Shown one piece after another: positions 19,970 through 60,308 of a DNA stretch of 64,000 bases. Below the pieces are notes generated by a model, which saw only the letters and a program-made list of their open reading frames with translations, was not told where the DNA came from and ran no database searches. Origin of the DNA: an uncultured Verrucomicrobiae bacterium. Lineage in GTDB: Bacteria > Verrucomicrobiota > Verrucomicrobiia > Chthoniobacterales > UBA10450. A program made the translations under genes and the position numbers. Position 1 is the first letter of the stretch, and every line of letters begins with the position of its first letter. The stretch covers positions 224,001-288,000 of the forward strand of contig CAWFGO010000005.1 in the NCBI GenBank assembly GCA_963815455.1. The letters are read 5' to 3'.

Positions 19970-20043
19970 CTTTCTGGGGAGCGCACTGCCTGCCCGCCCG
20001 CGAGCGGGCGCCTCGCGTGCCGATTCCGGCGCCCTCGCCGGAA

Positions 20044-46587: not shown

Positions 46588-46832
46588 TAGCTAGGAGTTG
46601 GAAGATAGAAGTTGGTTGTAGCCGCCCTTCCTCTTCCTCTGAATCTGTAGCGGCGGTCTCTGACCGTCGGATCTCTGCTCGATGTTAAATTGAGCGGCGA
46701 AGCCGCAGTTATTCGGCATCGCCCGGCGGAGCGGCCGATCCACCTTCGTCACTCGCCTGCCACGCCGTAATCCGGTGAAGGCGGGCGAACCGTACTTTTT
46801 CCTTTTTACTTCCTAATTTTGACTTAGCTTTG

Positions 46833-49076
<2,244 letters not shown>

Positions 49077-49199: not shown

Positions 49200-49670
49200 T
49201 CATCTCAGATTATACAAATAGAGGAGCGCGGCCCAACCGCTCGGCATTACATTCGGCGGATATTCCAACTCTCGTCCATGTTTCACTGCCATTTCAAGAA
49301 AGTAGCGAGCGTGAAAAAACGCTTCGAGAATCGGTCGTGTGACGCCGAGCCAACTTTCATTGTCTGCCATCGCGAAAGTCTTGCCGGTTCCTTCCGCAAC
49401 GATCTCCACGAACCATTCGTTCAATTCTCTCTCCGGCGAGAGCGCCCGAAGTTTCTCAACGATTGCCAGGGTACTGTTTTGCAGCAGATAAACTTTGAAA
49501 CTTTGATGATAGAATCGGTAGATCGGGTCTTCGTATCCCCAGTGGCTCGTGCATTCTTCGAGACGTTTTTCTAATTCCGGCAGCGCTGACTTGAGCCTTT
49601 TGAAGAGGCTCACCACTTCGGGGCGGTCGTCCAAGTCGGTCGGATTCAGAGGGGGCAATTTGCTCATCAC
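49200..49670 (-). CDS. Hypothetical protein
   Basis: 156-aa ORF with protein-like composition (HWGYEDPIYRFYHQSFKVY..SGWAALLYLY). Confidence 0.7.
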   Translation of the reverse strand: MMSKLPPLNPTDLDDRPEVVSLFKRLKSALPELEKRLEECTSHWGYEDPIYRFYHQSFKVYLLQNSTLAIVEKLRALSPERELNEWFVEIVAEGTGKTFAMADNESWLGVTRPILEAFFHARYFLEMAVKHGRELEYPPNVMPSGWAALLYLYNLR

Positions 49671-49721
49671 GAGATTCTATTGGCGTTGGCCATTTTCGCG
49701 AATCGCGTTCAATTTCAATCG

Positions 49722-50314
49722 ATGCCGTCCCCCACAATTTACGTCATCGCCGGCTGCAACTCCGAAAGAGTTCGCGAGCACGCGGCGCGGGCAAAACCAC
49801 GTTCGCCAAAGAATTTCTACCGAGCATTGGCGTCATCCGTTTCTTGAACGCGGACGAGATCGCGCGCGGATTGTCTCCACTCAAACCGGACGCCGTCGCA
49901 TTCAAGCCCGGAAAACTTCTTCTAAGCGAGCTGGGCGAATTGTTAGATCGACAAGAAACATTCGCGCTTGAATCGACACTGAGCGGAAAAACGCACGTGA
50001 GAATCTTCGAACAAGCGAAGTAGCGTGGCTATCGGATCGAGCTGCATTTCGTTTGGATTCCCGATGTGCGCGAGGCGATTCGTCGTGTCCGCCAAAGAGT
50101 CATCGAAGGCGGCCACGATGTTCCAGCCGACGACATCCGGCGCCGATTCCGGCGAAGTATTCAACATCTGTTGGACGAATATGCACCGTTAGCGAACAAG
50201 TGGTTTCTCTGGGATAACTCGACGCCGCCGGCAAAGTTATTGGCGGAATCCGCCACTCACAGTATTGTTGATCTGCGAACCTTCTTTTCCTTCCATGAAA
50301 AAGAATCTGTATAA
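49722..50314 (+). pseudogene. Zeta-toxin-like / predicted ABC-type P-loop ATPase, disrupted
   Basis: IYVIAGCN[23-nt insert]GAGKTT, FLNADEIA, FALESTLSG, in-frame TAG at 50021, RVRQRVIEGGHDVP, WDNS. Confidence 0.85.
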
Positions 50315-50474
50315 CGGCTTAAAGCCAATTCCGGAGAGCAACATGTCGCCAGAAGCGCGCGTCGCATCACAAGCGCACAAGCGCGCCACAAAAAAGAAAC
50401 GCGCCGAGCTTCGTCGCCGCGGTTTGCCAATGATCATCTGGAAAGACGGCAAAGTTCGCGAAGTTCCGGCGTGA
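50295..50474 (+). CDS. Small basic partner protein of the ATPase (putative antitoxin)
   Basis: 59 aa, overlaps ATPase end, RRRGLPMIIWKDGKV. Confidence 0.65.
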   Translation: MKKNLYNGLKPIPESNMSPEARVASQAHKRATKKKRAELRRRGLPMIIWKDGKVREVPA

Positions 50475-50541
50475 AACGCTTTCCCGAATCGGGTTGGAGT
50501 TTACTCGCCGGGGCGAGCAATCTGGATTCGTCGCTTAAGTC

Positions 50542-51060
50542 ATGATCAAATTTCTCTTCGGCATTCTTATTGGGATCGCGCTTGTCCTGGCGGCTGGGTA
50601 TTTTTTCGTTGCTCGCGGTGGACTCTTCATGGGGACGAAAGGCGGCCCGTTGCCGATGGAACGATTTGTTGTGAGCAAGGCGATTGGCGCGTCGATCGGC
50701 AAGAGCGCGCAGGATGAATCGCCCCTTCCCGCGGACGAAACCAATCTTCTCGCCGGCGCTCATATTTACATGCAGAACTGCGCCGGTTGTCACGGCAAAC
50801 TGGATCAACCCGCTTCGCCAATGGCGAAAAAGTGGTACCCGCATGTCCCACAACTGCTTCCACCGGGCAAAGGCGTGACCGACGATCCCGTCGGCACGAC
50901 GCACTGGGTGGTGACGAACGGGATTCGGTTCAGCGCCATGCCGTCGTTTGAAGGAACACTAACCGATAACGAACTCTGGCAAGTGAGCCAGTTCCTAAAA
51001 AACGCTGACAAATTACCTCCGCCCGTCCAGGAAGCTCTTCGCCAGCCGCCCGGGCCGTAA
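50542..51060 (+). CDS. Membrane-anchored c-type cytochrome
   Basis: CAGCH, NGIRFSAMP. Confidence 0.9.
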   Translation: MIKFLFGILIGIALVLAAGYFFVARGGLFMGTKGGPLPMERFVVSKAIGASIGKSAQDESPLPADETNLLAGAHIYMQNCAGCHGKLDQPASPMAKKWYPHVPQLLPPGKGVTDDPVGTTHWVVTNGIRFSAMPSFEGTLTDNELWQVSQFLKNADKLPPPVQEALRQPPGP

Positions 51061-51304
51061 ACCTTCGCGCAATTCGTAAGATCTTTCAGCACAGAGATCA
51101 CATAGGCCACGGCGAGGGATGGTCTGATGTCGGCCGCAATCCCTTTCCGTCTTTCACCACAGAGATCACGGAGACCGCAGAGAGAAGGTGGAAACGCCTC
51201 CCGCTAAAAAATGTTCGTAAACCTGCCGGGTGACTTGCTAGACTCGCGGCGATGAGAGCGAATATCAATAACATGGATGCGACCCAATTCTGTCGCGCTT
51301 CATT

Positions 51305-52030
51305 ATGAAAAAGAGAGTTTTCACGAGGTTGATCATTGTTCTGGTTGTGGTCGCGGGGATCGACGTGCGAGGCGGCTTGCCGATCGAGGTTGAATACGGT
51401 AGAGGCCGTAACCGGGTCGCGATAAAACTTTGGAGTGACGCGGAAACGGCGTTGAACAATGGCGATGTCGCGACCGCGCATCGAAACGTGGACGCGGCTA
51501 TTCGGAGCGACCCGGGACTTTATCCGGCCTTTTACACTCGGGCGAAGGTGTTGATCAGGGAAGGCAAATACGAACAGGCCATTCGAGATTGTGGCGAAGC
51601 GCTGCGACAGGATCGCACCTTTGTCGAAGCGGCATTATTGCGTGCCAGCACGAATACCAGGCTCGGAAGGTACGATGCTGGTCTCAAGGAAATTAACCAC
51701 GTGATTAATATCCATCCTCGGGTCGACGGTCTGGCCCGGGGATATGAGGATCGGGCGTGGCTTCGCGCGACCTGTGCGAACCCGTCATTTCGAAATGGGC
51801 AGCAGGCGGTTAAGGACGCAATGACGGCGTGCAAGCTGATGCAGTGGAAGGACGAGAACGCCGTCGACACGCTCGCGGCGGCCTACGCCGAAGCCGGCGA
51901 TTTCGATTCCGCCATCCGCTACGAAGAGAAGGCGTTAGGCATGAAAGGCGTTCTTCCCGAGGACGCCAAGACGTTTCAGCAGCACCTCCAATTGTTCAAG
52001 AAGCATCAGCCCATTCGAATGTCCAGGTAG
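51305..52030 (+). CDS. Exported TPR protein
   Basis: TPR helices; AWLRATC..RNGQQAVKDA..DTLAAAYAEAGDF. Confidence 0.85.
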   Translation: MKKRVFTRLIIVLVVVAGIDVRGGLPIEVEYGRGRNRVAIKLWSDAETALNNGDVATAHRNVDAAIRSDPGLYPAFYTRAKVLIREGKYEQAIRDCGEALRQDRTFVEAALLRASTNTRLGRYDAGLKEINHVINIHPRVDGLARGYEDRAWLRATCANPSFRNGQQAVKDAMTACKLMQWKDENAVDTLAAAYAEAGDFDSAIRYEEKALGMKGVLPEDAKTFQQHLQLFKKHQPIRMSR

Positions 52031-52441
52031 GTTTGAATCAGGAACACAGGAAAGGAGGAAGGAATTCGTGACGAAGAGCGTCGAAGTTTACGCAATTGCC
52101 TAATGTCTAGGGCGCGCAGGCTGCCCGCCTGTAAAGCCGGTCCGGCTCGGACTTTCGGCTGCTAGCCCAAACGAACTTTAATTGGGATTGGACCCACGAA
52201 ACACACCAATCAACGCGAAATCATATTGGATTGGTGTAGAGGCGGCTGCCTGCCACGCCATGGCCCCGCTGAGCGGGGCGACGGCGGGTGTCAGCCGCAA
52301 TCCCCTGTTAGCACAATCGTCCTATCGAAAAGAGCTGTTATAAGATCGGCATCGTAACCAGACAGGATTCACAGGATTGCCAGGATTGAGAAATACCGAA
52401 CAGAGGGTCTGGTAGAAATCGGGCAAATCCTGTCTAGAAGA

Positions 52442-53276
52442 TTAATCAAGTCTCGCAGCCTCTTGGCAACGTTTCATCAACTGCGGCGCTTTCATTCGCT
52501 TCGCCCACTTCGCGAATGCCGACGTCGGACCGCGCCAGCGCAGCGTCTCGACTTTTTTAAAGAGCGGCGCGTCGGTGCGCAGGGTCGCGAGTTTCTTGAA
52601 GAGCAATGCGAATTCGCGCTGTTCGCCAAGAACTTTTCGCGGAAAGTTCTCGATCTTACCGTAGCGGTTCAAAAGTGTGGCGGCGGTCCTTGCGCCGATT
52701 CCAGCGATGCCGGGGTAACCGTCGGCCGCATCGCCCACGAGCGCGAGCAGGTCCGGAATGAGCTGCGGGCTGACGCCGAACTTTTCGCGTATCCCAGCCG
52801 CATCGCGAATCGTTTTTGCGCCGGCCGTCGATCTGCACGACGCGCGTACCTCGCACGCATTGCGCCAGATCTTTATCCGGCGTCCAGATCGCGACTTTCT
52901 TTACCTTCTTGTCCTTCGACGCGAGATGCGCGGCCGAAGCGAGCGCATCATCGGCTTCGAGCTCGATCATCGGCCAGACGACAACGCCCATCGCCGCGAG
53001 CGCTTCCTCAAGCGGATGGAATTGCGAGAAAAGCGCGGGCTCGATGCCGTCGCCAGTCTTGTAGTCCGCCCAAAGCCGATTGCGAAAAGACTCGATCACG
53101 TGATCGGTGGCGACGCCGAGATAGGTGTCGCCGTTTTCGTTTTCAACTATTTCGAGAACGCTCTGGAGCACGCCGACGACCGCGCCGTATGGGCGGTCCT
53201 TGCCCTTAGTGAAGCGGCGCAAGCCGTAGAAGTGACGGAAGAGTTCGTAAGTTCCGTCGATTAGATGAACGATCAT
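52442..53276 (-). CDS. 5'-3' exonuclease / flap endonuclease (frameshift near 52815)
   Basis: LIDGTYELFR, EADDALA, PDKDLAQ, LVGDAADGYPGIAGIG. Confidence 0.9.
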
Positions 53277-53607
53277 CCGCACAGTAAGGGGATGAAATCA
53301 CCAAATTCCAATCACCAAGCACCAGTGAATGTCCAATAACCAATCTCCAATGAAACCGCATGTCCGCCGCAGGACAATGGAGCGAGTTGGGTAGTCGCGA
53401 CATGGATCATGTAACCCGAGGGGCGAGGGTGAGAAAGCGGGCGGCGAACGAATCAAACTCGCCGTGGTGAAAGGCGAAGCCTTTTACGCGGATCATTTTG
53501 ACTCACCGTTAGTCCTCGTGGCTGCGCGATCAAAAACCGCCGACAGGGTTAAATGATTTGACCCCAATTTCACCCCACTGAAGTTTACGCGAAAGTGTAG
53601 ATTTACA

Positions 53608-54444
53608 ATGAAAGGCTGGTCACACCCCAATCCTGAAGCCGCGGCGCCGGGTGAAATCGTCGGCATTTACCCGTTCACACTCTCGCTCGAGGAGAGCGAG
53701 TTGCTCGGCAACCAACTGTTTGCGGCAGATCAGGACTTTCTTATTTCGCACTACATGAAGGAAAAGTTCCTTCTGCAACTGCTCGAGTTCTCCGCCTTAT
53801 CAACGAAGCGCCTCGACCTGTACGACGATGATCCTTTGGAGGGATTGTATCCAGAAGCCAACAGGCACAATTTCGCTCAGGCCGATGCACAGTTGATGCA
53901 GCAGACGAACGCGAAGCGAGACGTTCAGGCATTTTTGCAGTCACAGGCAATTCATCGAACGCATTGTTATGCTCATTGCTGGTTTGGGATCCCCGAGGAG
54001 AGCGCAGACATGTGGGAAAGATACTCCGACAAAGGCACCGGAGTCTGCCTTGTCAGCTCGACGCATCGTTTGCTTCGTGCCGTCGTCACGGAGTCGAGCG
54101 TTGCGCATGAACTCGGAAGAGTGACCTATTGGCCAGATAACAAGCCTCTCCCGGACCTGCACAGCTCCACGGTAATGTTTCGCAAGCAGCCGAGGTTTTC
54201 GAAAGAGAACGAGGTGAGGTTACTGAGCCAAATCAGAATGGATTACCTCCCGACTGATGCTGAAGGTTTCCTTTCGCCCTGTCCTGAACGGCTGACCGTG
54301 CAAGTAAATCTAAATACGTTGGTCGCTGGCATCATTCTAGGGCCAAGCATGACGATTGAAAGCCGCCAAAAAGTAGTCGAACTTGCGCAAGCGAAGGTTC
54401 CGCACGCAAGAATCGTTCGCTCTCGACTCGAAGTGCAACCGTAG
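53608..54444 (+). CDS. DUF2971-like protein
   Basis: DPLEG, CW..ESADMWERY..GVCL, KQPRFSKENEVR, IILGP. Confidence 0.65.
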   Translation: MKGWSHPNPEAAAPGEIVGIYPFTLSLEESELLGNQLFAADQDFLISHYMKEKFLLQLLEFSALSTKRLDLYDDDPLEGLYPEANRHNFAQADAQLMQQTNAKRDVQAFLQSQAIHRTHCYAHCWFGIPEESADMWERYSDKGTGVCLVSSTHRLLRAVVTESSVAHELGRVTYWPDNKPLPDLHSSTVMFRKQPRFSKENEVRLLSQIRMDYLPTDAEGFLSPCPERLTVQVNLNTLVAGIILGPSMTIESRQKVVELAQAKVPHARIVRSRLEVQP

Positions 54445-54472
54445 AAGCGACACCCGTTAGAAAAGTTTCGAA

Positions 54473-55044
54473 ATGATCCTTCCGGCCTGGCAACTCATCG
54501 TCACACGTGACGGCATCACGCTTGCAATCGCCATTTTGGGCGTAGTGCTCGGGATCGCGAATCTTTCGATCGATGTATGGAGACATCAACCACGGCTCAA
54601 AGTCACCCCGCAATTGTATTTCGTCGACCAAACTCACCCCAGCGATCCATCCTAATAGACCGGCCGCACGAAGATTTCATGCGATCCCGCGGGGCGACGA
54701 CTGACAAAATGAAAGTAGCCATTGAGGTAATAAACCTCTCTCATACAAACACGATGACTTTGAATCACGTTGGATTTGCGAGGCGATTTGCAGAGTCGCG
54801 TTTTTTGATATGGGACCCCGCGACGATTTTGGCAATCGTGCCTAGCGGCGGTTCCATTTCAGGACGGAAAATCGAGCCGTTGACTAGGGTTATCGTTTAC
54901 ACCCATTTCACCGCGCGCATGATCTTCGACAACTATGGCTCGTTTTCCTTTGCGATTGCAGAAACAGAGTCTGGAAAAGTGTTTCGAGGTTCGAGTCCCA
55001 TCCTAAAACATATCCGTAAATCACTTCGCCGAAGTTCAATTTAA
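54473..55044 (+). CDS. Hypothetical protein with N-terminal TM (frameshift near 54620-54650)
   Basis: ITLAIAILGVVLGIANL..PRLKV continues into the frame with IEVINLS..VGF. Confidence 0.5.
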
Positions 55045-55279
55045 CTATGGCGACCCAGCCGATCAGGTTGTTCGAAACGAACAGGCTCATAAAGGCCAGG
55101 CTCATCAGGGTGGCGTTTGGTTTGGCGGGCGTGGTGCGCGAAACCAGGGCGAAAGGATTGAAGCGGGGCAGACCAAGCATTTGACATTCCGCCAGGTCCT
55201 TGAGGTTAATTCGCTGAAAACTTCCAGGAAGAACTATTTCGGCGATGGCTGGCGTGACGGTGAAGGCAGCTCCTCTCTT

Positions 55280-56554
55280 AAGTTTCTAGGAGGAGGAGGA
55301 GGATTTGTCGACCCGGGAAACGTGGGGTCTGCGGTCCCATTCGGCTTTAGTCTGCTTGCCGCAAAATCCTCCGCAGCCACGCCGGCCAAACAATGTTGCC
55401 CTGGGCGACAATTGCGACGGCGTTTGCTGAATCGGTGCCAGAGATGTTGAAGCGCAGGACGCCATCTCCGTCGAGTCCTCCGGGACTGAAAGAGCTGTCG
55501 AGGGCACCGTCGGGTTTTAGGCGTGCGACAGCAAAGTCGTCGCTCGAAACTCCGGCGAGAATGATCTTGCCGTCTGGCTGAATGGCGATTGCGTTAACCG
55601 AATCGTTGCCGGAAATATTGAAGCGTAACACGCCATCTCCGTCGAGTCCTCCGGGACTGAAAGAGCTGTCGAGGGTACCGTCGGGTTTTAGGCGTGCGAC
55701 AGCAAAGTCGTCGCTCGAAACTCCGGCGAGAATGATCTTGCCGTCTGGCTGAATGGCGATTGCGTTAACCGAATCGTTGCCGGAAATATTGAAGCGTAGC
55801 ACGCCATCTCCGTCGAGTCCTCCGGGACTGAAAGAGCTGTCGAGGGTACCGTCGGGTTTTAGGCGTGCGACAGCAAAGTCGTTGCTCGAACCCCCGGCGA
55901 GGATGATCTTGCCGTCCGGCTGAATTGCGACGGCGTTTGCTGAATCGGTGCCAGAGATGTTGAAGCGCAGGACGCCATCTCCATCGAGTTCTCCGGGACT
56001 GAAAGAATTGTCGAGGGTACCGTCGGGATTTAGGCGTGCGACAGCAAAGTCGTTGCTCGAAACCCCGGCGAGGATGATCTTGCCGCCTGGCTGAATGGCA
56101 ATTGCGTTAACCGAATCGTTACCGGAAATATTGAAGCGTAGCACGCCATCTCCGTCGAGTCCTCCGGGGCTGAAAGAGTTGTCGAGGGTACTGTCGGGTT
56201 TTAGGCGTGCGACGGCGAAGTCGTCACTGGAAACGCCGGCTAAGATGATTTTGGCATCGCGCTGAATGGCCAGCGCGTTTGCCGAATCGTTCCGAAATGT
56301 TAAAGCGCAAGATTCCGTCACCGTCCACGCCTCGATGGCTAAATTCTGGGTCGAGGATCCGCCCGCTTGATACCGAATGACTGCAAAGTTATTGCTGGAA
56401 GAGCCCGCAACAACTAACTTACCGTCGGGTTGAACACCAACGCCCTACCAACATCGTTACCTGCAATGTTTGTCCTTTGATTTCCTGCCAATGCGGAGGT
56501 GCCGACGAGAAGGCTTGCTAAAACTAAGCAACGCAACTGTCTCGTCACAGACAT
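55280..56554 (-). CDS. Exported delta-60-repeat (beta-propeller) protein, frameshifted at both ends
   Basis: Signal peptide from ATG 56554; AIQPDGKIILAG..FAVARL..DGTLDSSF repeats; 3' end uncertain. Confidence 0.8.
55420..56275 (-). repeat. 171-bp (57-aa) tandem repeat, 5 near-identical units
   Basis: GCCATCTCC anchor recurs at 55461, 55632, 55803, 55974 and 56145. Confidence 0.95.
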
Positions 56555-56896
56555 GAAGCAACAGTTCCCCCGTTGTGCTCGAAGAGGATAGGAGAAAAAA
56601 AGCGGATAAAGTGTGATACAGCCTTTTTAGTAGATGGATACATTACTGCCAAGAGAATTCGTTCCACCTGGCAGTTATCGGTTAATGGTTAACGGTTATT
56701 CGTCGGCAGATAGGAAGGGTTAGCGTGGGGGTCGTATCGTTTATTCTTGTCCAAGATCCGAAGGCGATCAGTCGTAAGACGGGTTGAGAGTTGAGAGCGT
56801 AAAGCTCCGTTGGAGCCACGCTCCTTTACGGAGTTGAGAGCGAGAGGTCAGCCGCCTTCGTGCAAGACTACGGCGAGCCAAGGAAGTCGGAGACTT

Positions 56897-57142
56897 TTAG
56901 CGAACCTCTATGCCAATCGGGGCTTGGTTGGCAGTCAAAAACGTTTTCACCAGTTCGCCTTCGCCGCAGACGATCATTTCGGGAAAGCGTTTGAACCATT
57001 CCCCGGTCGGAACTTCCGGTTCGCTGTCCAACCATGCTGAAAGCAGTCCGAGCTGCGAAGTTGAAATCTCCCGTTCGCGCACTCGCCTAACGAGGTGCGA
57101 CATTAGCGCGTCAGGAATGCGCTCGCGTCGGATCCGAGGCAT
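56897..57142 (-). CDS. Hypothetical protein (possible toxin of a two-gene module)
   Basis: 81 aa; HL..RVRER.I..WFKRF..VCGEGELVKTFL. Confidence 0.7.
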   Translation of the reverse strand: MPRIRRERIPDALMSHLVRRVREREISTSQLGLLSAWLDSEPEVPTGEWFKRFPEMIVCGEGELVKTFLTANQAPIGIEVR

Positions 57143-57145
57143 CGC

Positions 57146-57358
57146 TTACCGGCCGTAAAAGCCTGCAATAATTTCCTTCTCCAGCCGCTCCGCTTGCGCA
57201 GGATCTTTCGCAGCAACCATCCGATCTGCCAGCGCGACGAGTTTATCAGGCGACAACTGACGTTTGCTCGCTTGCGAACGAAGCAAAGCGCTCAAAACTT
57301 CACCCTTTTCCTTTGATGGCAGGCGCTTGATTTCCTCGATGATTTGCTGCGCGGTCAT
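57146..57358 (-). CDS. Hypothetical protein (possible antitoxin)
   Basis: 70 aa; MTAQQIIEEIKRLP..EK helical N-terminus; 3 bp from the next gene. Confidence 0.7.
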   Translation of the reverse strand: MTAQQIIEEIKRLPSKEKGEVLSALLRSQASKRQLSPDKLVALADRMVAAKDPAQAERLEKEIIAGFYGR

Positions 57359-57497
57359 GCCTTTAATAGACTTCGACTACGTCGGTCGATCAAGAAGGCC
57401 CTTTGCCCGTCAGACCTTTGCGCAACCATTTCCTATTTATGAGATGGGTTCTAAAAGCATAGGAAATGCAGCATCTTCCTCTGCGCCAACTTTCTGA

Positions 57498-58316
57498 TCA
57501 TCGCAGTGCGGCGACCACGTGTGCCTGAATTTTGCCGTCCACTTCGCCCGAACCGAAGCGGGCGGCGATGGCTTCGGTGGCGAGATCGGTGGCTTCGGCG
57601 AGGCGCGATGCATCACGCGCTTCGATTTCACCGCGCAGCGGCGTTCCCTGACAGTAGGCGATCGCCGGCAGCCGCGGCGACTCTGCCCGGCTGCGCATGG
57701 CAAGCGTCGAGATCGTTGGTTGTTCGTTGAAGCCGGCGGCGGCGAGGTCGGCCACTACATTTTGCAATTGATGATAGCCGTGCGGAGTCCGCGCCAGGAA
57801 ACGCGGCGGATCATGCGGGAACATGCCGGCAAGTGTTTGCGTCACGACATCGGCGAATTCGTTCTCTTCGATGCGGTCCCATACGTTGAACAGGAATGTC
57901 CCGCCAGGGCGCAGCACCCGCCGCACGTCTGAGAACGCTGCCGGCTTCTGCGGAAAAAACATGGCGCCGAACTGGCACACGACGATGTCGAACATTCCAT
58001 CGTCGAAAGGCAACTGCATCGCATCCGCCTGGCGCCATTCCACCGGGCGGGCCGTGCCAGCAGCGGCAGCCTGTGTCAGCATCGGCTCGTTCAAGTCGGT
58101 GGCGGTAATCTGCACGTCGGGCGCGAGTCTCTTGGCCAGCTCGCGAGTCACCACGCCTGTGCCAGCTGCAATCTCGAGCACCGCTGACGGCTGGCGTTGA
58201 GCTACTCGACCCGCCATGTCCGCCGCATACGGCTGGAAAATCAGCGGCACCAAATACTGTTCGTATAGCTGCGGAATCGATCCGCTGAATAGCTTATCAG
58301 TATCGTCGGCCATCAC
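57498..58316 (-). CDS. Class I SAM-dependent methyltransferase
   Basis: VLEIAAGTG, TDLN, ADAMQLPF, CQFGAMFF, LRPGG. Confidence 0.93.
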   Translation of the reverse strand: MMADDTDKLFSGSIPQLYEQYLVPLIFQPYAADMAGRVAQRQPSAVLEIAAGTGVVTRELAKRLAPDVQITATDLNEPMLTQAAAAGTARPVEWRQADAMQLPFDDGMFDIVVCQFGAMFFPQKPAAFSDVRRVLRPGGTFLFNVWDRIEENEFADVVTQTLAGMFPHDPPRFLARTPHGYHQLQNVVADLAAAGFNEQPTISTLAMRSRAESPRLPAIAYCQGTPLRGEIEARDASRLAEATDLATEAIAARFGSGEVDGKIQAHVVAALR

Positions 58317-59230
58317 TCATCTCTTTGGTTTCGTCTTCTTCACCGCGGACTTCCGGGCGCCCTTCTTGGCGACCCAACCCAGCCTTCGCACAAGGCTACT
58401 CCGAAAGTTTTCGCGAGCGGGCGGCGTGGCAAGCTGACAATCGGGTCGCGTTGTCGAATCGGGAGCGTTCAGTGGGCTCATGGGTGCGGGCACCGGCACG
58501 GTTGCGTCAAGCAGGCCGATGCGCTTGTTAACCCAATGCGTCTGATAGGCCCAGGCGGGCAGCGGCGCGGCCTTCGTCGTGCATGACCAGTTGTTGAAGT
58601 GGAGGTTTACCAGATAAAAATGCCGCCTCAGTTTCCGCAATACTTCGACAATTTTCGGATCGTCGTATCCGTGCATCTCCATCGAGATTTGGGGAATCGA
58701 CGCCAGCAGTTCGTCCGGCGTCGCGAGAAGGGCGTCCCATTCTGCGCCTTCGATGTCCATTTTGATGATCACGCGTTGGCCGATCCGTCCGTTTTTTCGG
58801 AGCTGGTTTTCCAATGTATCAAAGAGGCGGGAATCTTTGGAACCGGTTCGATCTCCCACGCATTCATTATGAAACACCATGGTGCCGCCGTCGCAGAGTG
58901 GGCGTGCGGGATCAAAACAATCGTACCATGGACCGGCACGTGATACCGGCGTGACACCTCGCAGCCCCAGTCATCGTTACTGCCAACGCCGTAGGAATAG
59001 GCCGCATCGATCGGCTCGATCAGGTTCTCGCACATCAGGTATCCGCCATCGTTGGCGCTGCCGAAGCGTTTCAGGGTACAGTTTTTTAATGCCACCGGTT
59101 GAAGCTCGGCCAGAATGGTTTCGCGCAGCCTGCGCCCTCGCGCTTCGCGCACGAGATCGCCCACGATGACAGCGCCGCCGAGCGCGAGAGCAACAATGAC
59201 AAAGGCGAGGCGAATCGAGGGTTGGTTCAA
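58317..59230 (-). CDS. FkbM/Methyltransf_22-like protein (frameshift near 58910)
   Basis: RFGSANDGGY, YSYGV, IKMDIEGAEW, EMH, HFNN. Confidence 0.75.
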
Positions 59231-60246: not shown

Positions 60247-60308
60247 GAGATTCCTCCAGACCTTCGCACAAGGCTACGGCTTGGCAGGCGACTCCGCTCG
60301 GAATGACA
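60247..60308. repeat. GTCAT-family arm with nested 33-nt element
   Basis: GAGATTCCTC[CAGACCTTCGCACAAGGCTACGGCTTGGCAGGC]GACTCCGCTCGGAATGACA. Confidence 0.8.

Follow-up and report, generated by a model that had tools for sequence, protein, structure and literature searches.

A 23-nt hairpin element of the small-dispersed-repeat and REP kind at a recurrent insertion point in Udaeobacter-like Chthoniobacterales

A 23-nt unit with exact ends offers a rare case for the study of how very short palindromic repeats spread, among them repetitive extragenic palindromic sequences (REPs) and the small dispersed repeats (SDRs) of cyanobacteria. Here we analyse such a unit, a hairpin element of 23 nt that occurs twice in a stretch of 64,000 nucleotides (hereafter the window, meaning the whole of that stretch) from contig CAWFGO010000005.1 of an uncultured Verrucomicrobiae bacterium, positions 224,001 to 288,000. 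The genome to which the window belongs (hereafter the own genome, G000; 3.62 Mb, seven contigs, 56% G+C) is placed in a family of Udaeobacter-like Chthoniobacterales, whose genomes served for comparison.

The SDRs of Nostoc-type cyanobacteria are the closest analogue, and at most an analogue. Elhai et al. in 2008 (Genome Res 18:1484) reportedly described SDR1-8 of Nostoc punctiforme as 21-27 nt long, folding into hairpins and nested in heptamers and other repeats, and are said to have suggested RNA intermediates for the cyanobacterial repeats; we know of no enzyme for SDRs. In two publications SDRs are treated as short mobile elements and HIP1 as the insertion site for SDR5 (PMC5861425, PMC3116915), and the former reports SDRs only from Nostocaceae among the HIP1-rich cyanobacteria that it examined (PMC5861425). 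The element described here differs from SDRs in phylum and sequence, its host being a verrucomicrobium, and in that three independent hits on a coding P-loop pin its insertion down to the nucleotide, with the reading frame broken. On the other hand, it is dispersed, it is of the same size class (23 nt, against 21-27 nt for SDRs), it can form a hairpin and it is nested in heptamers and in other repeats, all of which is typical of SDRs as reportedly described. Moreover, as SDR5 inserts in the hyper-abundant HIP1, so do some copies here abut a hyper-abundant motif, GATCGACAA.

REPs provide a second comparison. REPs are palindromes of 20-50 nt that follow a conserved tetranucleotide, in most cases GTAG. 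Like them, the element is a short, imperfect, bulged palindrome behind a conserved tetranucleotide, with a left junction that is compatible with the C|T and the obligatory 5′ C of REPs, and it is present in high copy number, mostly outside genes and occasionally within open reading frames (ORFs), in a host that is rich in GTAG-tagged REPs and in genes for REP-associated tyrosine transposases (RAYTs). For the verrucomicrobium Opitutus terrae, too, GTAG REPs, some of them inside ORFs, are among the reported cases (PMC3733652). However, the palindrome does not follow GTAG or CGTC, as in REPs, but (C)(A/T)AC, and at the P-loop this tag belongs to the target, where it is the host's own Asn codon. 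Copies are not arranged in inverted doublets (REP doublets forming hairpins, REPINs, or bacterial interspersed mosaic elements, BIMEs). Whereas a REPtron has its cognate tnpAREP gene flanked by the same repeats, no RAYT gene is flanked by the 23-nt hairpin; where flanks of RAYT genes were inspected, both in the own genome and in the family genome G013, they carry other repeats, mostly with a GTAG tag, and the presence of RAYTs does not track the hairpin. The passages on REPs in PMC8266576 describe their dissemination pathway as not shown, and enzymology as available for a few RAYTs, in vitro only.

The same source, as far as its account of the IS200/IS605 family extends, describes for the model element IS608 a single-strand transposition by HUH enzymes that is strand-specific, relies on end hairpins and inserts 3′ of a short fixed sequence, which is left outside and is not duplicated (PMC8266576). 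The 23-nt element likewise sits 3′ of a fixed short sequence without duplication, where IS200/IS605 elements use a tetra- or pentanucleotide, but it has a single hairpin rather than two different subterminal ones, carries no gene and is found beside neither of the two IS200-like genes of the own genome. Since cleavage would fall at the hairpin foot, no guide tetranucleotide can be placed 5′ of it. Two further classes were considered and rejected. Miniature inverted-repeat transposable elements (MITEs) have terminal inverted repeats and a target-site duplication and measure 70-300 bp; the present element has 23 nt and no duplication. In the attC sites of integrons, R′′ (RYYYAAC) pairs with R′ (GTTRRRY) over a unit of 57-141 nt with an integrase nearby; judged by sequence and length, the present unit differs, since AAC does precede the hairpin but a GTT-type right end is missing and the unit is just 23 nt long. 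The initial annotation of the window, which was made from its letters alone, had put the inserts forward as its best candidate for an undescribed system, and in this it went too far: they match the Nostoc-type repeats, and the signature of their insertion is common to REP and IS200/IS605 elements. The element is thus of the SDR and REP kind, family-wide and site-specific, and not a new category. A literature search on repeats of Udaeobacter and on RAYTs of Verrucomicrobia, with subscription journals outside its coverage, listed no work that deals with repeats of this type in the lineage.

In the window, copy 1 reads TCCGAAAGAGTTCGCGAGCACGC, between the left flank GGCTGCAAC and the right flank GGCGCGGGCAAAACC. 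Translation upstream of it gives MPSPTIYVIAGCN, and the frame directly past the insert gives GAGKTTFAKEFLP, that is GAGKTTFAKEF, so that removal of the 23 nt restores the Walker-A loop. Copy 2, TCCGAAAGTTTTCGCGAGCGGGC, is identical to copy 1 at 19 of 23 positions and is flanked by CCTTCGCACAAGGCTAC and GGCGTGGCAAGC. The repeat that it splits is a dispersed one, of which the genome has about 35 copies if as many as three mismatches are allowed; the intact form of the target, CCTTCGCACAAGGCTACGGCTTGGCAGGC, is found at 60261-60289, 1.9 kb away. On the opposite strand this repeat consists of GTAG and a short palindrome and is thus REP-like; its AGCCTT/AAGGCT stem folds. At neither site is there a duplication beyond one ambiguous C. 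On all these points, namely the position and likeness of the two inserts, the split P-loop of a zeta-like ATPase, the split repeat with an intact form nearby and the missing duplication, the initial annotation was accurate. Its weaker third candidate (19987-20009) is a different, GC-rich palindrome without TCCGAA, and the 11-mer common to both, CGCGAGCGGGC, has just 8 matches genome-wide, fewer than the 18 of the reversed control; we rejected the candidate as a member of the family.

The interrupted gene has, besides the insert, an in-frame TAG where its homologues have Gln, and is therefore a pseudogene. A homologue without the interruption, which has 91% identity to it over 79 amino acids, scores 35 bits with the Pfam family Zeta_toxin and 31.7 bits with AAA_33, in each case above the cut-off. 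A fragment of the ATPase was searched in 355 genomes of the family, 36 of which had a match, and the P-loop DNA was read in 32 loci; with two loci lacking a P-loop match and a spurious one set aside, 29 loci with 30 sites were left. Of these sites, 26 are uninterrupted (typically GGCTGCAACGGCGCGGG) and one carries a different small lesion. The other three carry the 23-nt hairpin at the identical position, and they belong to three genera: the window gene, the gene of G059 (TCCGAACGCTTTCGCGAGCAGGC), which like the window gene lies downstream of thiC, and the gene of G043 (TCCGAAATCGTTCGCGAGTAGAC). The insert breaks the frame of the toxin-like gene in all three cases. Among 80 metagenome homologues, of which three loci have no visible upstream part, the insert was absent from every one.

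A maximum-likelihood tree of 24 rows, which leaves out the badly broken loci L043, L045, L067 and L072 as well as L070 with its two short genes, places the G059 gene with the uninserted genes of G263 and G256 (support 100/99), the G043 gene with that of G194 (98/87) and the window gene with those of G089, G209 and G210 (94/88). Well-supported branches force at least three changes of insert state. Since each inserted gene is nested among uninserted sisters, these appear to be three independent insertions at one P-loop nucleotide, or else an old insertion followed by several precise excisions; either course implies that the 23-nt hairpin moves as a unit. Over 171 codons the G059 gene has no lesion other than its insert, which points to a recent event, and the other two genes are decayed, the window gene by its TAG and the G043 gene by frameshifts downstream. 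The presence of filled and empty alleles of one gene in many genomes amounts to a natural experiment, with three hits on one nucleotide. It also means that such elements act as mutagens of toxin-type genes, and that annotators of these genomes may be looking at insertions, not at sequencing errors, where they meet 23-nt frameshifts.

The intact G059 gene could also be taken to mean that the insert acts as an intervening sequence, either tolerated or regulated, which removal from the mRNA, ribosomal bypass or a precise excision switch would render harmless, so that the toxin-like gene stays usable. The in-frame TAG of the window gene and the downstream frameshifts of the G043 gene argue against this, as do the length of the insert, which is not a multiple of three, and the location of most copies between genes or within repeats. 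A matching pair of take-off and landing codons is missing from the flanks, and after a -1 shift the P-loop would contain eight additional residues; ribosomal bypass and frameshifting were rejected on these grounds, and we regard the whole idea as highly improbable. That the insert could be an assembly artefact is contradicted by its presence at the same site in three separate assemblies, and a structured insert of 23 nt is unlike an indel error of the homopolymer type. A look-up of sequencing runs that cover 49300-58800 of the window listed none.

Whether the two copies in the window resemble each other by chance could be asked of the window itself and of further genomes. Within the window, a degenerate pattern with up to three mismatches has two matches, a number reached by 14 of 100 shuffles and hence not significant; the initial annotation was right that two clear copies were a narrow basis, and wider searches have since supplied others. 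In the own genome the unanchored core CCGA[AT]N4TTCGCGA[GA] has 21 matches against one for the reversed pattern; 18 of the 21 have the C|T junction, with a flanking AC in 14 and GC in four. The core (C)TCCGAA-N4-TTCGCGAG, usually with the tail CAGGC or CGGGC, is present there in 18 copies, and CTCCGAA-N4-TTCGCGAG recurs, in up to 59 copies each, in 22 of 24 other genomes of the family (20 of 22 without G008 and G015, which are unpublished). It is absent from all 16 genomes of sister families, drawn from 15 other families of the order, and the reversed core has no match in any of the 41 genomes. In a public species collection, 68 of the 80 matches listed are titled Verrucomicrobiota, Chthoniobacterales, Candidatus Udaeobacter or Spartobacteria; the remainder come from scattered phyla, in keeping with the chance matches that a 17-base pattern should have in 596 Gb. 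Viral contigs behave as a chance-like control, with 23 matches to the pattern, of which seven have the AC flank and none has the CAGGC or CGGGC tail; by these counts the matches look like chance or coding sequence, and we rejected viral contigs as carriers. With more than 200 copies in more than 20 assemblies, against zero or one for reversed controls, chance and artefact are refuted for practical purposes.

Judged by its copies, the unit consists of an imperfect palindrome of 18 nt, in which a single C is bulged, and a tail of 5 nt, as a rule CAGGC or CGGGC. The unit lies directly 3′ of (A/T)AC in an orientation that is fixed relative to the target, and as it starts with T, its left junction is C|T, which holds for 18 of 18 copies of the own genome; the right junction is C|G. 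The best targets continue with GGCG(C/T)GG, the P-loop target being GCAAC^GGCGCGG, and the 3′ flank is otherwise variable. The target that the initial annotation had proposed, GCWAC^GGCG, therefore fits the P-loop and the REP-type repeat and is too narrow for the family as a whole, where the 5′ side alone is constant. Among 62 matches in G013 (at most one mismatch), 56 have AC at positions -2 and -1, of which -1 was fixed by the pattern used to fetch them and -2 was free. The preceding tetranucleotide is CAAC in 17, CTAC in nine, and TTAC and GAAC in eight each, and 31 of the 62 have one of the two usual tails in the five bases past GAG (CAGGC 19, CGGGC 12).

The sites of these 62 copies show how often the element is nested in other repeats: 23 lie in the REP-type repeat after CTAC or TTAC, 20 in tandem heptamers of the AACGYCC type, three before a second hairpin, two before TTCGTCC..GGCGAAG and 14 elsewhere. 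Nested copies are likewise found in the own genome, one inside a hairpin loop, ccccgaac^gctttcggg, and one inside ggggaagcgaac^ccgcttcccc. Empty orthologous sites, by which an insertion can be recognized, exist beyond the 26 P-loops: a G013 copy in a unique spacer faces a gap of 24 columns in the orthologous spacer of G059, a genome of the same genus, although with flanks just 67-73% identical the exact ends of that gap are unresolved. Two other comparisons were uninformative, one with G001 (same genus as the own genome), which is too diverged, with a DNA identity of 66% in the neighbouring gene and an unconserved repeat region, and one between locus L108 of G013 and G059, which gave partial and repeat matches only. 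We also considered whether the target is itself a folded hairpin. In empty P-loop and REP sites the insertion point can fall at a loop-stem junction, but the folds are no better than those of shuffled sequences (z from +0.75 to -2.1), and we regard this as a weak idea. Three independent hits on one P-loop nucleotide, the nested insertions and the empty site within a genus together uphold the central proposal of the initial annotation, a tiny hairpin that is inserted at a specific sequence, without duplication, by an agent acting in trans. It is very probable that this is a genuinely mobile, site-specific element of the Udaeobacter-like family.

Several other repeats accompany the element. Counted over the two strands of the own genome, the 9-mer GATCGACAA is present 1103 times, against three times for the reversed word and 34-446 times for single-mismatch variants; it is a HIP1-like hyper-abundant motif without strand skew along the contigs, adjoins several hairpin copies and often stands just ahead of start codons, as in the ATPase homologues of L042 and L049. 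A second family of micro-hairpins, CCCCGAA-N3-5-TTCGGGG, has 60 loose matches in the own genome (examples are C1:472810, C1:56047 and C2:370747) and none for the reversed control. Its core, CCGAAAGCTTTCG, is common to the 23-nt element. In most cases this hairpin forms the apex of a longer repeat, GGGATCCTTCGAC...GCTCAGGATGACA, and in five places it lies directly beside the 23-nt element. At C1:1071571-1071677 of the own genome, three tandem 44-nt units, each a hairpin plus TTCGTCCCTTGGCGAAGAGGTCAGC, follow heptamers of the CAGAGGA type, with a fourth such unit 1.1 kb away at C1:1070456. In G013, a 12-kb region (C6:1017544-1029953, L100) has nine hairpin copies, most of them in the REP-type repeat, between small genes that include ParE, Doc/Fic with a MazE-like antitoxin, and ORF6N; the composites of repeat and hairpin stand at the borders of these cassettes of the toxin-antitoxin type. 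Elsewhere in G013 (C1:236112-236154, about 2510-2552 of L324) a two-hairpin composite lies inside an open frame whose start resembles that of an FAD-dependent oxidoreductase, and it is apparently read in frame. Two-hairpin composites of the own genome occur in other frames, which argues for an insert at the DNA level rather than a protein motif.

The flanks of the copies bear on whether an enzyme is needed at all. In enzyme-free template switching, a nascent strand ending in ...(A/T)AC would detach from its template, pair behind an identical trinucleotide at another hairpin copy, copy the hairpin and return through microhomology on the 3′ side (such as GGCG), and the conserved 5′ flank would be inherited microhomology instead of the specificity of an enzyme. 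In line with this, the P-loop site GCAAC^GGCGCGG and the REP-borne site GCTAC^GGCGTGG agree over 4-5 nt to the left of the insertion point and over 4-9 nt to its right, which would have allowed REP-borne copies to serve as templates; the insert appears to be 23 or 24 nt long depending on context; copies with an identical 18-mer have differing tails; and searches for Y1 and RVT_1 domains and among neighbouring ORFs turned up no dedicated enzyme. However, many insertion sites lack 3′ similarity to donors, and 47 full target sites (GC[AT]ACGGCG[CT]GG) in the own genome are unoccupied. Furthermore, the same core is kept in 22 genera whose genes are just about 66-70% identical at the DNA level, a persistence that argues for recognition by a conserved factor over neutral copying. 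We therefore consider template switching unlikely, though clearly less so than an intervening sequence.

Our best explanation as a whole, to which we give a probability of about 0.6, is that the hairpin is a non-autonomous micro-element that has been mobile in this family. More doubtfully, it would be moved as single-stranded DNA by a cut-and-join enzyme acting in trans, of the HUH or Y1 type (a RAYT or an IS200-like protein). After binding the hairpin, such an enzyme would make one cut at C|T, at the 5′ foot, and another about 5 nt beyond the 3′ foot, and rejoin the excised hairpin behind the C-3′OH of another single-stranded (A/T)AC site. That the P-loop is targeted would follow from the resemblance of its DNA to the REP end GCTAC^GGCG, the target used most often, and the P-loop hits would survive because loss of a toxin gene costs nothing. 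What suggests this model is the 5′ sequence that stays outside the element, the missing duplication, the end hairpin, the strand-specific orientation and the preference for loops of other hairpins. According to the account of REP cleavage in PMC8266576, the cut that TnpAREP of E. coli makes in single-stranded REPs falls at C|T, and strand transfer requires C as the attacking 3′ base. The left junctions of the own-genome copies are compatible with this chemistry. The own genome has 16 hits to PF01797 (Y1_Tnp): four inside large housekeeping ORFs, which are probably false, two IS200-like genes, two long proteins with Y1 and helix-turn-helix (HTH) domains, and eight RAYT-like genes (Table 1). Of the latter, six of those inspected are flanked by their own GTAG-tagged REP and an inverted REP, as in classical REPtrons, one of them having an in-frame TAA; two (C3:678958 and C2:698713) are associated with other palindromic repeats that lack the GTAG tag. 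The host belongs to a globally abundant group of soil bacteria, the Udaeobacter group, and has several candidate HUH genes.

A considerable body of results nevertheless weighs against this explanation, and above all against its enzyme. The right junction is C|G rather than C|T, and the single hairpin is at odds with the two that IS200/IS605 ends and REPINs use. Its thermodynamics are weak: the bulged hairpin CTC-CGAAA/TTTCG-C-GAG, which the initial annotation gave for both copies as CTC-CGAA/TTCG-C-GAG, is indeed the predicted DNA fold of copy 2, but at -3.6 kcal/mol it is matched in stability by 111 of 200 shuffles, and copy 1 is predicted to prefer a different fold. The constancy of the stem bases is not usable as evidence, because the search patterns fixed them. 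Around all 16 Y1_Tnp hits of the own genome, the two IS200-like genes included, a distance of 1.5 kb is free of hairpin copies, and a Pfam scan of 94 ORFs around copies, at 29 loci of 22 genomes, revealed neither a transposase nor any recurrent mobile-element gene. Occurrence is equally discouraging. G007 (99% complete) has five core matches, at least one of which is possibly plain coding sequence, and no Y1_Tnp hit; in G005 (97% complete, 20 copies) the Y1 hits are confined to housekeeping ORFs of more than 900 amino acids and one weak RAYT-like hit of 24 bits. IS200-like hits are missing from G005 and from the hairpin-rich G023. Sister families have Y1 genes and no hairpins, and the long Y1 and HTH protein is found in seven of 24 family genomes against ten of 16 outgroup genomes. 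The initial annotation had looked to genes that are flanked by the element or co-occur with it, and this route has led nowhere: neither adjacency nor co-occurrence with the hairpin speaks for the long Y1 and HTH protein, for Y1_Tnp in general or for RVT_1, and these were rejected. An HUH enzyme as the mover of the 23-nt hairpin is accordingly a doubtful proposition, which we hold tentatively.

Slightly more doubtful still is a lineage-specific factor, neither a Y1 transposase of the RAYT or IS200 kind nor a canonical reverse transcriptase, that would read the 18-nt bulged hairpin and paste the 23-nt strand behind (A/T)AC. If it exists, the element would be the smallest mobile DNA whose target is exact to the nucleotide and can be addressed by experiment, and the process might be the same as that which spreads the SDRs of cyanobacteria. 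A reverse transcriptase figures in another alternative, in which the GUU end of a small hairpin RNA would anneal to a nicked ...AAC-3′OH, from which the RNA would be copied into DNA much as telomerase or target-primed reverse transcription does it. This would account for AAC being required and yet not duplicated, but the search for RVT_1 reverse transcriptases found none in the own genome and had hits in just two of the 24 other genomes of the family, and we think this alternative very improbable.

Table 1. Positions of the inserts, their targets and candidate enzyme genes (window numbering, except for the last row, which gives contig and position in the own genome)
Feature	Position	Strand	Remark
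Hairpin element copy 1, 23 nt	49761..49783	+	after AAC codon of P-loop
Hairpin element copy 2, 23 nt	58400..58422	+	splits dispersed repeat at 58383..58434
Zeta-toxin-like / AAA_33 P-loop ATPase pseudogene	49722..50314	+	broken by insert and by in-frame TAG at 50021-50023
Dispersed repeat copy CCTTCGCAyAArGCTAC^GGCGyGGCAGGC	58383..58434	+	split by copy 2
Uninterrupted repeat member	60261..60308	+	empty form of copy-2 target
Third candidate of the initial annotation	19987..20009	.	outside hairpin family
RAYT-like genes, own genome (at least 8)	C5:101194-101652, C3:533771-534418, C1:202084-202800, C2:520570-521199, C3:385724-386143, C1:104421-104981, others		

Three further features deserve mention. 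An Rfam scan of the window returned a single match, a TPP riboswitch at 46831-46940 (+; 60.6 bits, above the gathering score), and none at the hairpins; the riboswitch lies upstream of thiC (47019-49076) and is an ordinary one. Around copy 2, a gene for an FkbM-type methyltransferase (58317-59230, -) seems to be divided between two overlapping frames, perhaps through a fault of the assembly, and its final 60 or so codons traverse the repeat and the hairpin. Lastly, at C1:173889-174350 of the own genome (489-950 of L325), an intact tRNA-Met gene stands between two partial copies of itself, in which the anticodon arm is replaced by a CCCCGAAAGCTTTCGGGG hairpin; ARAGORN calls the intact gene only, and the flanking copies may be an integration scar or the result of hairpin insertion into a tRNA gene.

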